Origin: Promethearchaeota archaeon
GTDB lineage: Archaea > Asgardarchaeota > Lokiarchaeia > Sigyniarchaeales > SOKP01
Length of the DNA: 61,942 nt
Direction: 5' to 3'
Assembly: GCA_008080735.1 (NCBI GenBank)
Contig: SHMW01000013.1
Coordinates: forward strand, 15,918 to 77,859
Every line of letters starts with the position of its first letter. Positions within the stretch are counted from its first letter, which is position 1. The translations under genes were made by a program, and so were the position numbers. The notes under the pieces were generated by a model. That model saw nothing but the letters and a program-made list of their open reading frames with translations, had not been told where the DNA came from and made no database searches. Positions 16,564-33,220 of the stretch are shown one piece after another.

Positions 16564-17703
16564 TTATGCTTTCTCTAACTCCATCTCTTTAATTGCCTTC
16601 GCACTACGGAAGGGAAGATCTTCTGTTGATTCGCCCGCTTTATATTTGAATTTTTCTTCGAATTTTTCATTGAGCGATTGAAAGATAAGTGATAAGGGCA
16701 AGTCCATGGGACAATTATTCGCGCATGAACCGCATTCCACACATCGGTCTGCATCATGAGCAATTCGGGTTAATTGATAGGTGACATTATCAATCGCTTT
16801 ATCTTTTCGCTTTTTCTGTAATATACAATCCACGCAATAGCATACGGGACAAGCGCGAATGCACATCCCACACATAGTACATTTCTTCAGCTGCTCAATC
16901 TTTTCCTCTTGTGAAAGGGCTTCCCACTCTGCAAGATCTTTTGCTCTCCTTTCTTCGGCAGTCTTAATAATTTCGTCCATCTTTTCTTCATGAGAACTTT
17001 TAATATCATCGGAAAGATCTTGCGTTTTAACGCCTGACGCTTCGAGTAAATCAGCCCCTTTATTGGTATGAACTTTAAGGATCACATCCTCTGAATCGAT
17101 TGGGATGCCAATGTCAGTTACGGAAAGATCTGCGATTACTGGATCTTTTCTCACACATCGAGCGCAGTTATCAGCGACATCGATATCTACTTGTTTAGTC
17201 TTTCCGTCTTCGAGCATAAAAAGTAGGCCATCATCAGTGATTTTTTCCTTGACGATTTTAGAAGTATCGAGTTCTTTCTCACTGCGTAATTCGCGCGAGA
17301 CATTTAATGTGATTCCTCGATCTTCAAGAGCAATAATGAATAAGTTATCCAAATTTACCTGTCTAAGTTTGTTAAGTTCAATTAAAGCTCGAGTATCGCA
17401 CGGACGCGCGACAAGGGCGATTTTTCCGTCTTTCGCACCGTTCGCTTTTTCATGCAAAAATTTTGACGCTGAATCTGTGCGTGAAAAACCATAGGCAATT
17501 AAATTAGATAATGGAAATTTTTCAATATCTTCGGGTTTTTCCCATAATACTGGGGAGATCGAGAACCGATCTTCTTCACCCGTTTTTCGACTAACTTTCG
17601 CTTCCGCTCCGATTACTTTATCGACCGTTCCCCCTTTAAGAAGAGCTTTTAATAATTCGGGAAAGTCGGTCTCTTTTATGAGATATTCTGCTTTCGTATC
17701 CAC
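16564..17703 (-). CDS. FdhB/FrhB-like (F420-dependent dehydrogenase beta subunit-like) Fe-S protein, third gene of the Sec-hdr operon
   Basis: ARPCDTRAL..L, CARC, ADLSV.DIG, CTMCGMCIRACPVCYC and CVECGSCANNCP; GTG start. Confidence 0.8.
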   Translation of the reverse strand: MDTKAEYLIKETDFPELLKALLKGGTVDKVIGAEAKVSRKTGEEDRFSISPVLWEKPEDIEKFPLSNLIAYGFSRTDSASKFLHEKANGAKDGKIALVARPCDTRALIELNKLRQVNLDNLFIIALEDRGITLNVSRELRSEKELDTSKIVKEKITDDGLLFMLEDGKTKQVDIDVADNCARCVRKDPVIADLSVTDIGIPIDSEDVILKVHTNKGADLLEASGVKTQDLSDDIKSSHEEKMDEIIKTAEERRAKDLAEWEALSQEEKIEQLKKCTMCGMCIRACPVCYCVDCILQKKRKDKAIDNVTYQLTRIAHDADRCVECGSCANNCPMDLPLSLIFQSLNEKFEEKFKYKAGESTEDLPFRSAKAIKEMELEKA

Positions 17704-17743
17704 TGTATTCCAACTCGTAATCTTATTTTATTAAATTAAATTG

Positions 17744-17808
17744 GAAAAATAACACTATCAATGAGCACCCATTACTCATCAGTATTGAGAACTCATTTAT
17801 TATTTTTC
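17744..17808 (-). promoter_or_regulatory. long imperfect RNA hairpin in the vhuD-fdhB intercistronic region
   Basis: Minus strand: GAAAAAUAAUA/UGUUAUUUUUC, AAUGAGU/GCUCAUU, CUCA/UGGG, UACU/AGUA stems closing a GAUG loop. Confidence 0.55.
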
Positions 17809-17847
17809 ACTTGATTTGATACATATTTGTAAATTATTTTAATTAAA

Positions 17848-17918
17848 ATGTGCGCAATGGGGCATCCATTTCTTCAACAAGATTCTCGTTTTTGTAATCT
17901 TGTATCATAAGGGCACAT
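17848..17918 (-). promoter_or_regulatory. SECIS element, eukaryote-like (AUGA...GA kink-turn core)
   Basis: Starts 4 nt after the vhuD stop. Helix I AUGUGC/GCACAU; core AUGAU...UGAA; perfect 8-bp helix II ACAAGAUU/AAUCUUGU; A-rich apical loop ACAAAAACGAG; extra AAUGG/CCAUU hairpin on the 3' side. Confidence 0.8.
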
Positions 17919-17922
17919 ATTC

Positions 17923-18354
17923 TTATTTTTGTGTGTCTATTCGAATAGGATTTGGACCGAGTTCTGCGATCTTTTTATGGAACTTTGTTGCTTCCTTTTG
18001 GAATTTTTGTCCTTCCGCGGCACTGCAATAGAACATATGAATCCGTTCTTTATCTAAACCGATCGAATCGAGCAGTTCCTTGATATACTCAACTTCTCGA
18101 TAGGCAAAATAATTCCCATTTTCATAATCGCATTCGCCGGGGTATCAAGCTGCCACCAGAACACCGTCAGCACCCCGTCCAAACGCGCGCATCACGAGAT
18201 CAGATCCCACTCGTCCAGTACACGGCACTAAAACCGTTCGGATTGAGGATGGATATTGGGCACGGATGGTACCTGCCATATCAGCACCTCCATATCCTCA
18301 TTTCCAACAGAAAAAGCCAATGATCTTGACTTTTCCATTTTCATTTTCAGACAT
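17923..18354 (-). CDS. vhuD: selenocysteine-containing hydrogenase/Hdr-associated [2Fe-2S] subunit VhuD/MvhD (143 aa, 2 Sec)
   Basis: MSENENGKVKIIGFFCWKUGYGGADMAG...VPCTGRV...GADGVLVAAUYPGECDYENGN...SAAEGQKF...LGPNP. UGA at 18298-18300 and 18145-18147 align with Cys in the mvhD at 32756-33220 (CCNWCSY; TGCHIGDC); AGGAGG upstream. Confidence 0.93.
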
Positions 18355-18373
18355 TTTAGCATTTCCTCCTCGT

Positions 18374-20329
18374 TTACTCCTCTATAGGTAAGAATTCATC
18401 TATATAGGCCATATATTGGACATCTCTGTAATATCTGAGCTCAATCGCGTTGCTTGGACATTGGGCGGCGCACGTTCCGCAACCCCGACAGCTGATAATA
18501 TCAACGACTAAATTTCCGTTTTCATTTACAGATATCGCATTGTAAGGACACGCTTCAATACATTTATAACATTTCGCGCATCGCTCGTCTGATGGAGTCG
18601 CCCGAATCAGTTCCATGGTATATTCCCCCCGACCCATCGGAATCGCTGCTGAGGACGCTGCACCTTTGGCTTGTCCTACAGCTTTATCAATTCCTTTCTG
18701 TCCTTGACATGAGCCGGCAATAAACACACCCGGAACTTTCGTACTAATCGGATCCAATCGAGCATGGAATTCCTTGAGAAATCCATCAGGACTACGTTCC
18801 ATATTCATTACGTTGGCGATTTCTACTGTACCTTGGGAGGGCAAAGACGCCGATGACAAGACTACCATATCAAATTCTTCTTCAATGACCGTGTCTGTTC
18901 CTACGGGCTCCATCTTAACCTTCAGATTCTTAGTTTCGGGATCCTCTTCAATATTTCCAACCAAACCTTTCATGAAGATAATACCAGAATTTCGCGCTCG
19001 ACGATAATACTCCTCATAATCCTTCCCGCAATTTCTCATATCGATATAGCATACGACTATTTCGGAATCAGGATATTCTGATTTAATTAACTTGGAGTTT
19101 TTCACCGATAAATTACAACACACTACGCTACAATACTCGTTACTTCGTAAATCCCGTGAACCCACGCAGTTGATGAATAATATGCGTTTCGGTCGCTCTC
19201 TATCAGAAGGTCGCTTTAGATGCCCAAATGTAGGTCCATTTGGCGCGAGAATGCGTTCGAGCTGAATCTGAGTTATTACGTTGTCATAGGTGCCGTATCC
19301 GTAATCATCCTCTTCATAGAGGTCCCAACCAGTCGCAATAATAATCGTTCCAACTTCGAGATCCACATACTCTTCCTTCATACTAAAATCAATCGATTCT
19401 TGATCGCATGAATCCACACACGCAAAACATTCCACACAAGAGTCTCGAGCAATATCATATACCGCTGGGACTGCTTGCGCGAATGAAATGTCAATGCATT
19501 TACGGGCCGAAAGGTTTTCGTCAAAATAATTCGGTACATAAATTGGACAGACTTCGGTACACTGGCCGCAGCCCGTACACGAGTCTTCATCCACATACCG
19601 AGGATTTCTCTTGACTTTTACCTGAAAGTTGCCAATATATCCATCCACATCAACAACTTCACTATAACTCATGATGTTTATATTCGGATGACGATTGGCT
19701 TCTAACATTTTTGGCCCCAAGATTCAGATAGAACAGTCATCTGTAGGAAACGTTCTGTCCAATTGGGACATCCGACCACCAATGGTCGTTTTCTTTTCTA
19801 CAAGATGGACTTTATATCCCGCATCTGCTAAGTCGATGGCTGAGGTTAGTCCTGCGATACCTCCGCCTATAACTAACGCTTCGGGTTTTACAGGAACAGT
19901 TTTCGTTGGCACATCCTCTAACAATCGTGCTCGTGAAATTCCTGCTTTAATGAGTTCAATCGATTTTTGCGTCGCTTCTTCCTTTTCTTGTTGATGAACG
20001 AAGCTACAATGTTCTCTGATATTGACGAATTCAAGGTATCGTGGTGGTAAACTGATCTCTTCGAGTATTGCGTGAAAGACCGGTTGATGTGTTTTAGGAG
20101 TGCATGCCGCAACAACAACCCGATCAAATCCGACTTCCTCGTTTTGCTCTTTTATATAGGCGCTTCCACCTTCAGTACACATCGAAAGATATTCATACGC
20201 CCAAACGTTCGGTAGCTTATCAATCTCCTCAACTATCTCTGGAACATCGAGTATTCCCGCTATATTTATACCTCACCGACACACAAATACCGCAATTTTT
20301 AGTTCATTGGTCTGTTCTTCTTCAGACAA
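18374..20329 (-). CDS. hdrA: selenocysteine-containing heterodisulfide reductase subunit A (651 aa, 2 Sec)
   Basis: One frame from TTG 20329 (MSEEEQTNELKIAVFVCRUGINIAG) through UGA 20273-20275 and UGA 19724-19726 (FPTDDCSIUILGPKM) joins ORF-track fragments 19724-20182 and 18374-19720. GGGIAG FAD motif, ACTP, NIREHC, ferredoxin motifs. Confidence 0.93.
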
Positions 20330-32755: not shown

Positions 32756-33220
32756 TTATTCTTGTTTAACTTGTATTTCGCCTAATTTTTTTGGAAATGG
32801 CGATGGTCCTAAGCTTAAGATGGTATCATTAAATTCACGGATTAATTCAGCAAATTGTTTTCCCTCACTTGCCGATATCCATTCCAAACGAAATCGGGTG
32901 GGTTCGATTCCAATTTTTTTCAATAAGGTTTTCATATGTTCCATGCGTTCTCTAGTTAATTCATTCCCGCTAATATAATGACAATCGCCGATATGACATC
33001 CCGTTACTAATACTCCATCTATTCCGCTTTTGAATGCGTCAAGAATAAATGACGGTTCTACTCTTCCGGAACACATCACTCGAACAATCCGCACACTCGG
33101 GGGATATTGGAAACGAGAAACTCCTGCCAAGTCAGCCCCCGCGTAACTACACCAATTACAACAGAAGACTAATATTTCAGGATTAAATTCCTCGTTCTTT
33201 TTTAATTTAGTTTCAGTCAT
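32756..33220 (-). CDS. mvhD: MvhD [2Fe-2S] subunit (cysteine form)
   Basis: FCCNWCSYAGADLAG, VMCSGRV, GCHIGDCHY, WISASEG. Confidence 0.95.
   Translation of the reverse strand: MTETKLKKNEEFNPEILVFCCNWCSYAGADLAGVSRFQYPPSVRIVRVMCSGRVEPSFILDAFKSGIDGVLVTGCHIGDCHYISGNELTRERMEHMKTLLKKIGIEPTRFRLEWISASEGKQFAELIREFNDTILSLGPSPFPKKLGEIQVKQE

Follow-up and report, generated by a model that had tools for sequence, protein, structure and literature searches.

Almost certainly, the minus strand of the 61,942-nucleotide stretch of Promethearchaeota DNA analysed here (the window) carries a functional selenoprotein gene of the FlpD family (vhuD/mvhD), in which two in-frame UGA codons are predicted to be decoded as selenocysteine (Sec), and which standard ORF calling breaks into fragments of at most 44 aa. 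The frame 18354..17923 (minus strand) opens with an ATG at 18354-18352, closes with a TAA at 17925-17923, and holds just two in-frame stops, both TGA (Table 1); it is otherwise free of stops and of frameshifts. The read-through product was matched to Pfam PF02662 (FlpD/MvhD, described as 'methyl-viologen-reducing hydrogenase delta subunit') at 151.3 bits (cut-off 22.3; E 1.6e-44) over the full profile (positions 1-123 of 123). An earlier note on this DNA had claimed that the gap left by gene calling holds a complete 143-aa MvhD-family protein and had proposed a FlpD/MvhD profile search of the read-through translation; the full-length match bears the claim out. Solved MvhD and VhuD chains were matched at E values of 1e-37 to 1e-39 (2e-38 for 5odc_D, an MvhD). 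An ungapped alignment of the product with the Cys-containing paralog of the window (33220..32756, minus strand; 41% identity) put U19 opposite Cys24 and U70 opposite Cys75, so that the note was also right in placing both TGAs on Cys codons of that mvhD. In the solved VhuD chain 9sfi_K, too, the two residues entered as non-standard (X) align with U19 and U70, in agreement with the note's statement that methanococcal VhuD has two Sec. The family pattern, C-x2-C ... C ... C-x4-C, is present in full, with C16, U19, C45, U70 and C75 each matching a Cys of the Cys paralog and of the solved MvhD chains.

Table 1. Features of the vhuD locus and of the Sec machinery. Positions are those of the window; entries that begin with C give the contig of the source genome and the position on it.
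Feature	Position	Strand	Remarks
vhuD/mvhD (FlpD family) CDS	17923..18354	minus	143 aa + TAA; two in-frame UGA codons; from translation and PF02662
Sec1 (predicted), UGA codon 19	18298..18300	minus	FFCWKUGY, CxxU
Sec2 (predicted), UGA codon 70	18145..18147	minus	VAAUYPGEC, Ux4C
AGGAGG, putatively ribosome-binding	18365..18370	minus	10 nt 5' of the vhuD ATG, inside the 19-nt hdrA-vhuD gap (18355-18373)
lokiSECIS (eukaryote-like)	17848..17918	minus	fold z -3.2, pattern and covariation
SECIS lower stem	17918-17913 / 17853-17848	minus	closes the element
SECIS AUGA	17908-17905	minus	begins 14 nt past the vhuD TAA
SECIS 9-position stem	17904-17896 / 17884-17876	minus	eight Watson-Crick pairs and a basal U.U
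SECIS apical loop	17895-17885	minus	11 nt, A-rich, ACAAAAACGAG; read from sequence and fold
SECIS GA	17875-17874	minus	3' of the stem
hdrA	18374..20329	minus	651 aa; TTG start at 20329, TAA at 18376-18374; 19 nt 5' of vhuD
hdrA UGA codon 19	20275-20273	minus	CRUGINIAG; conserved in 70/76 orthologous loci
hdrA UGA codon 202	19726-19724	minus	DDCSIUILGPK; canonical HdrA Sec position; conserved in 74/76 loci
frhB/fdhB-like flavo-iron-sulfur gene	16564..17703	minus	379 aa; Pfam FrhB_FdhB_C and two 4Fe-4S motifs; ~200 nt 3' of the SECIS
SepSecS	C15:58185-59342		389 bits
PSTK-like gene			full-length match; 178.6 bits, under the NCBIfam equivalog cut-off of 290.5
SelD	C63:15274-16071	minus	above cut-off; one in-frame TGA
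EFSec/SelB-like gene	C15:64728-65648		243.9 bits (cut-off 242.25)
tRNA-Sec	C15:60230-60370	minus	between SepSecS and the EFSec-like gene; found by blastn with same-genus tRNA-Sec

Conservation of the TGAs was assessed in 80 loci taken from public genomes, nearly all of them titled Promethearchaeota or Promethearchaeia (Asgard/Lokiarchaeota-type MAGs), and the ortholog could be rebuilt in 77, at 64-76% identity to the window gene (76% for the best public ortholog). TGA was found at both Sec columns in all 77, and the spacing was always 51 codons. Among 40 related genomes, nearly all of the best ~55 matches likewise had two TGAs (a few had one), while the more distant Cys-type paralogs were mostly without TGA. 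The earlier note had named TGA conservation in Asgard orthologs as a check and had considered two chance nonsense hits on Cys codons unlikely; the 77 of 77 orthologs with both TGAs, together with the four copies in the source genome that have the same pair, uphold that view. Summed over the 77 comparisons, pN/pS was 0.18 upstream of the first TGA, 0.17 from there to the second, and 0.26 in the remainder of the gene, figures which are rough owing to saturation of synonymous sites. The amino-acid constraint was undiminished after either TGA, which we take as evidence that translation probably extends beyond codon 19.

These comparisons bear most directly on the possibility that the locus is a pseudogene, that is, an mvhD paralog killed by two nonsense mutations falling on Cys codons. 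A change from TGT or TGC to TGA takes a single substitution, the six intact Cys-type copies of the genome could compensate for the loss, and ORF callers return nothing but fragments. Against this, both TGAs are kept in every one of the 77 orthologs (drawn from various MAGs) and in almost every one of the best matches from the 40 relatives, other stops and frameshifts are absent, pN/pS downstream of the TGAs (0.17-0.26) is as low as upstream with no relaxation past codon 19, a conserved and covarying SECIS lies past the stop, and three further paralogs have the same two-TGA pattern. The pseudogene was rejected on the ortholog conservation data, and we regard its probability as negligible.

The source genome (4.1 Mb in 140 contigs, 33.6% GC) was found to hold ten FlpD copies, six of Cys type and four with one TGA at each of the two Sec columns (C[WLD]KUGY and U-x4-C) and no other. 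The Sec-type copies clustered in a clade that excluded those of Cys type (support 94/96), and all four had a full-length hdrA on their 5' side (47-53% identical to the window hdrA) and an AUGA...GA hairpin directly 3'. In-frame TGAs of the FlpD copies were seen at the two Cys-aligned columns only, except for a single TGA near the C-terminus of the Cys copy on contig C46, which is probably the stop of that copy.

A different kind of alternative accepts that the UGAs are read through, with insertion of a residue other than Sec, either by genome-wide reassignment (for example to Trp or Gly) or by near-cognate decoding as Cys or Trp. The identity of the inserted residue is predicted from sequence, and the tRNA-Sec gene is unusual in having two insertions. 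Stop-codon recoding has reportedly been seen in other Asgard lineages, which was also counted in favour of this explanation. TGA is, however, an ordinary stop in the source genome, where it ends 17% of the open frames of at least 300 codons, and on this ground genome-wide reassignment was rejected. The confinement of the FlpD TGAs to two Cys-aligned columns (bar the probable stop of the C46 copy), the SECIS of published type 3' of the gene, and the non-standard residues at the same columns of the solved methanococcal VhuD likewise argue against insertion of another residue. So does the machinery present in the genome: SepSecS, genes similar to PSTK and EFSec, a SelD that itself contains Sec, and a tRNA-Sec(UCA) that can be folded. 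Decoding as another residue is very unlikely in our estimate, and decoding as Sec remains the preferred reading.

Within this set of Sec genes, SelD itself appears to be a selenoprotein in the source genome, as judged from its frame. A Sec-containing SelD is said to occur in most Sec-using Asgard archaea. The tRNA-Sec gene was found to be interrupted twice: an insertion of 22 nt follows CUUCA in the anticodon loop, and another of 29 nt lies in the T loop. With both insertions removed, the remaining 90 nt took the form of a 9/4 cloverleaf with a UCA anticodon in an unconstrained fold (9-bp acceptor stem, 7-bp D stem with a 4-nt loop, anticodon loop CUUCAAA, long variable arm and 4-bp T stem). 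Three relatives of the same genus (G001-G003) have an uninterrupted tRNA-Sec gene of 89 nt. The Loki tRNA-Sec described in PMC4989117 (Mariotti et al. 2016) is of the archaeal 9/4 type and located near EFsec, and differs in having a single T-loop intron of 31 nt where the gene of the source genome has two insertions. General searches did not return the gene: ARAGORN reported no tRNA-Sec for either the window or the whole genome, whether or not introns were allowed (lowered thresholds gave only noise), Rfam RF01852 gave no tRNA-Sec in the genome (best score 37.9 bits, to a tRNA-Gly), and a scan of the genome by GC windows and motifs found nothing. A 90-nt candidate for tRNA-Sec (L012) was rejected as an intron-containing tRNA-Cys.

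The SECIS element past the vhuD stop is identical in geometry to the published lokiSECIS, which is given in PMC4989117 as AUGA, a 9-bp stem, an 11-nt loop starting with adenines, and GA. A strict pattern was matched in 67 of the 77 orthologous loci, mostly 6-24 nt past the stop, and was without a match in the other 10; the stem and loop lengths were 9/11 in 51 of the matched elements and 9/12 or 9/13 in 16. In an alignment of 38 distinct elements, both-sided changes were seen at eight of the nine stem pairs, and 93.6% of cells were paired as compared with 18-51% when the 3' partners were slid by 1-3 columns; the set had been chosen by a pattern demanding at least 7/9 pairs, which inflates the percentage paired and has less influence on the compensatory-change counts and on the slid controls. 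Rfam gave no SECIS match, either in the whole window (searched at the gathering threshold) or in 17500-18500, where E values up to 10 were allowed; such a match is not among the features that define the published lokiSECIS. The sole Rfam match in 17500-18500, RAGATH-33 at E 9.9, was dismissed as chance.

A covariance model made from the alignment of orthologous SECIS elements detected no element of the genome other than that of the window, as follows from its construction (150 of 6913 candidates were scored), and direct searches with it missed the SECIS elements of the three Sec paralogs at the places where they were expected. Since the model includes the flanks and is too specific to one orthologous group, it says nothing on the paralog elements, which rest on direct reading. 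Two of the latter, behind the Sec-type vhuD paralogs at C49:~17440 and C87:~7160, were observed to have the 3' arm (UCGUAAGAU) in common, as well as an identical U.U mismatch inside the stem; the corresponding proteins are just 43% identical and belong to different subclades.

Past the SECIS, a second stable hairpin was noted some 90 nt further 3' (~17786-17745, minus strand; CAAUACUGAUGAG...CUCAUUGAUAGUGUU, then AUUUUU), and transcription may end there, before the frhB-like gene is reached. The hairpin contains AUGA...UGA motifs, and the SECIS model gave a weak score (14.9 bits, E 0.1) on the partly overlapping segment ~17763-17828.

Upstream of vhuD, hdrA is broken into three pieces by ORF calling. 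Its stop was TAA or TAG in the orthologous loci, always, and never TGA, a feature that PMC4989117 puts down to selection against a UGA that could be recoded by the downstream SECIS. The UGAs of the two genes are located at very different distances from the SECIS, namely 237 and 392 nt for those of vhuD, and about 1820 and 2370 nt for those of hdrA. Downstream, 75 orthologous loci have the frhB-like gene in the same orientation (59-72% identity among the matches listed), and it was absent behind the other three Sec-type hdrA-vhuD pairs of the source genome, which suggests that the orthologous group of the window has an input module of its own that is independent of hydrogenase.

In Methanococcus, Vhu hydrogenase or formate dehydrogenase serves as the input module, from which the [2Fe-2S] cluster of VhuD relays electrons to the bifurcating FAD of HdrA (PMC6019823, PMC13518236). 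Judging from homology and from the place of its gene directly behind hdrA, the VhuD of the window would bind a [2Fe-2S] cluster and dock on HdrA. The hdrA-vhuD transcript, most likely bicistronic, would carry four UGAs, two in each cistron, and all four would be decoded as Sec by Sec-tRNA(Sec) and the EFSec-like factor. The single SECIS 3' of vhuD would direct recoding in both cistrons; that one SECIS acts across hdrA and vhuD was put forward as a hypothesis in 2016 (PMC4989117). By homology with methanogen MvhD/VhuD, the protein would then pass single electrons via its [2Fe-2S] cluster from the input module, probably the FrhB-like protein encoded next, to the HdrA FAD.

Only five Cys/Sec positions (C16, U19, C45, U70 and C75) are conserved in the Sec-type proteins. 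A [2Fe-2S] cluster takes four ligands, so that, provided that every ligand is one of the five, the cluster should be bound by one Sec or both. No statement of the residues that ligate the [2Fe-2S] cluster was found in the papers on MvhD/VhuD that were consulted, and the argument is accordingly one of counting only. Joined together, these elements could describe a hydrogenase-independent module in which a two-Sec VhuD links the FrhB-like protein with an HdrA that has two Sec as well, the [2Fe-2S] cluster has one Sec or more among its ligands, and one SECIS serves four UGAs at distances of up to 2.4 kb; we offer this combined reading tentatively, and think it somewhat more probable that one or another of its parts does not hold.

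The arrangement might in addition act as a selenium switch, in that scarce selenium would lead to termination at codon 19 of vhuD and, earlier, at codon 19 of hdrA, silencing the operon, and a Cys-type operon ~11 kb away would take over. An all-Cys operon with the same three-gene layout (hdrA-mvhD-frhB-like) is indeed found in parallel at ~31.6-36.4 kb of the window, and in Methanococcus the Cys isoenzymes (Vhc) replace Vhu when selenium is limiting (PMC13518236). The Cys copy of the window is, however, just 41% identical to VhuD and belongs to a different clade, and the two are not a close pair of the kind formed by VhuD and VhcD. Such a switch seems rather unlikely to us, and would add to the main explanation, decoding of the UGAs as Sec, rather than replace it.

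The combination of a two-Sec vhuD behind a multi-Sec hdrA, with a common SECIS, is already known in this lineage from PMC4989117 and PMC11227280: it was the founding example of the Lokiarchaeota Sec system in 2016 and was catalogued across Asgard archaea in 2024. The Lokiarchaeota VhuD described in the former is ~150 aa long with two Sec 50 codons apart, HdrA is multi-Sec with the canonical position always included, and the hdrA-vhuD tandems have very short gaps, a lokiSECIS only after vhuD, and several pairs per genome. The window locus resembles these tandems in the size of VhuD, its two predicted Sec and their spacing, the order of the two genes on one strand, the gap, the single SECIS and the geometry of that element, the hdrA stop and the several pairs; it comes from another genome, and nothing of substance differs from the tandems as there described. 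The available text of PMC4989117 makes no mention of a conserved third gene such as the frhB-like gene of the window's orthologous group, and a pairing of the Sec clade with an FrhB-like protein was found described neither there nor in the accessible portion of PMC11227280. According to the latter (Huang et al. 2024), FrhD/MvhD/VhuD selenoproteins occur in 57.3% of Sec-utilising Asgard archaea, in which hdrA and frhD are always neighbours with a common type I eSECIS-like structure (AUGA_GA core).

Outside this lineage, the VhuD of Methanococcales (M. voltae, M. jannaschii and M. maripaludis; 9sfi_K) belongs to the same family, has Sec at the same two columns, ~50 codons apart, and serves as a [2Fe-2S] relay between Vhu hydrogenase or Fdh and HdrA. 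The methanococcal SECIS is of the archaeal type, though with an AUGA motif, in contrast to the eukaryote-like element of the window (PMC4989117). Methanococcal HdrA has one Sec where the window hdrA has two UGAs, the window comes from an organism other than a methanogen, and next to its vhuD lies a frhB-like gene, whereas in Methanococcales hydrogenase subunit genes are found. MvhD of Methanothermococcus thermolithotrophicus (5ODC chain D) and the Cys paralog of the window (33220..32756) share the fold family and the conserved Cys columns. Both have Cys in place of Sec (CNWCSY and CHIGDCHY, as opposed to CWKUGY and UYPGECDY in the VhuD of the window) and belong to a separate clade.

Standard gene callers render the four-UGA operon as a gap and split ORFs, and because of these, metabolic reconstructions of the MAG would miss the module of HdrA, VhuD and FrhB-like protein as well as three more HdrA-VhuD pairs. 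As a clean natural case, the locus further lends itself to testing whether one SECIS can act on UGAs in two cistrons over 2.4 kb.

Two minor observations concern sequences elsewhere. In a 29-kb contig (DATKTW010000168.1, locus L073), whose title assigns it to an actinobacterial MAG ('Candidatus Nanopelagicaceae bacterium'), there is a two-TGA vhuD ortholog (67% identical) with a lokiSECIS; the contig is most likely mis-binned and of Asgard origin. In the source genome, the pattern of AUGA, 9-bp stem, A-rich loop of 11-12 nt and GA was also found at C10:33559, 34341 and 35021 (three on the minus strand within 1.5 kb), C7:24791 (minus strand), C89:10387, C102:10379 and C109:9597 (all plus strand); each of these additional hairpins presumably serves as the SECIS of some further selenoprotein gene, for instance one for VhuU or a Prx-like protein.
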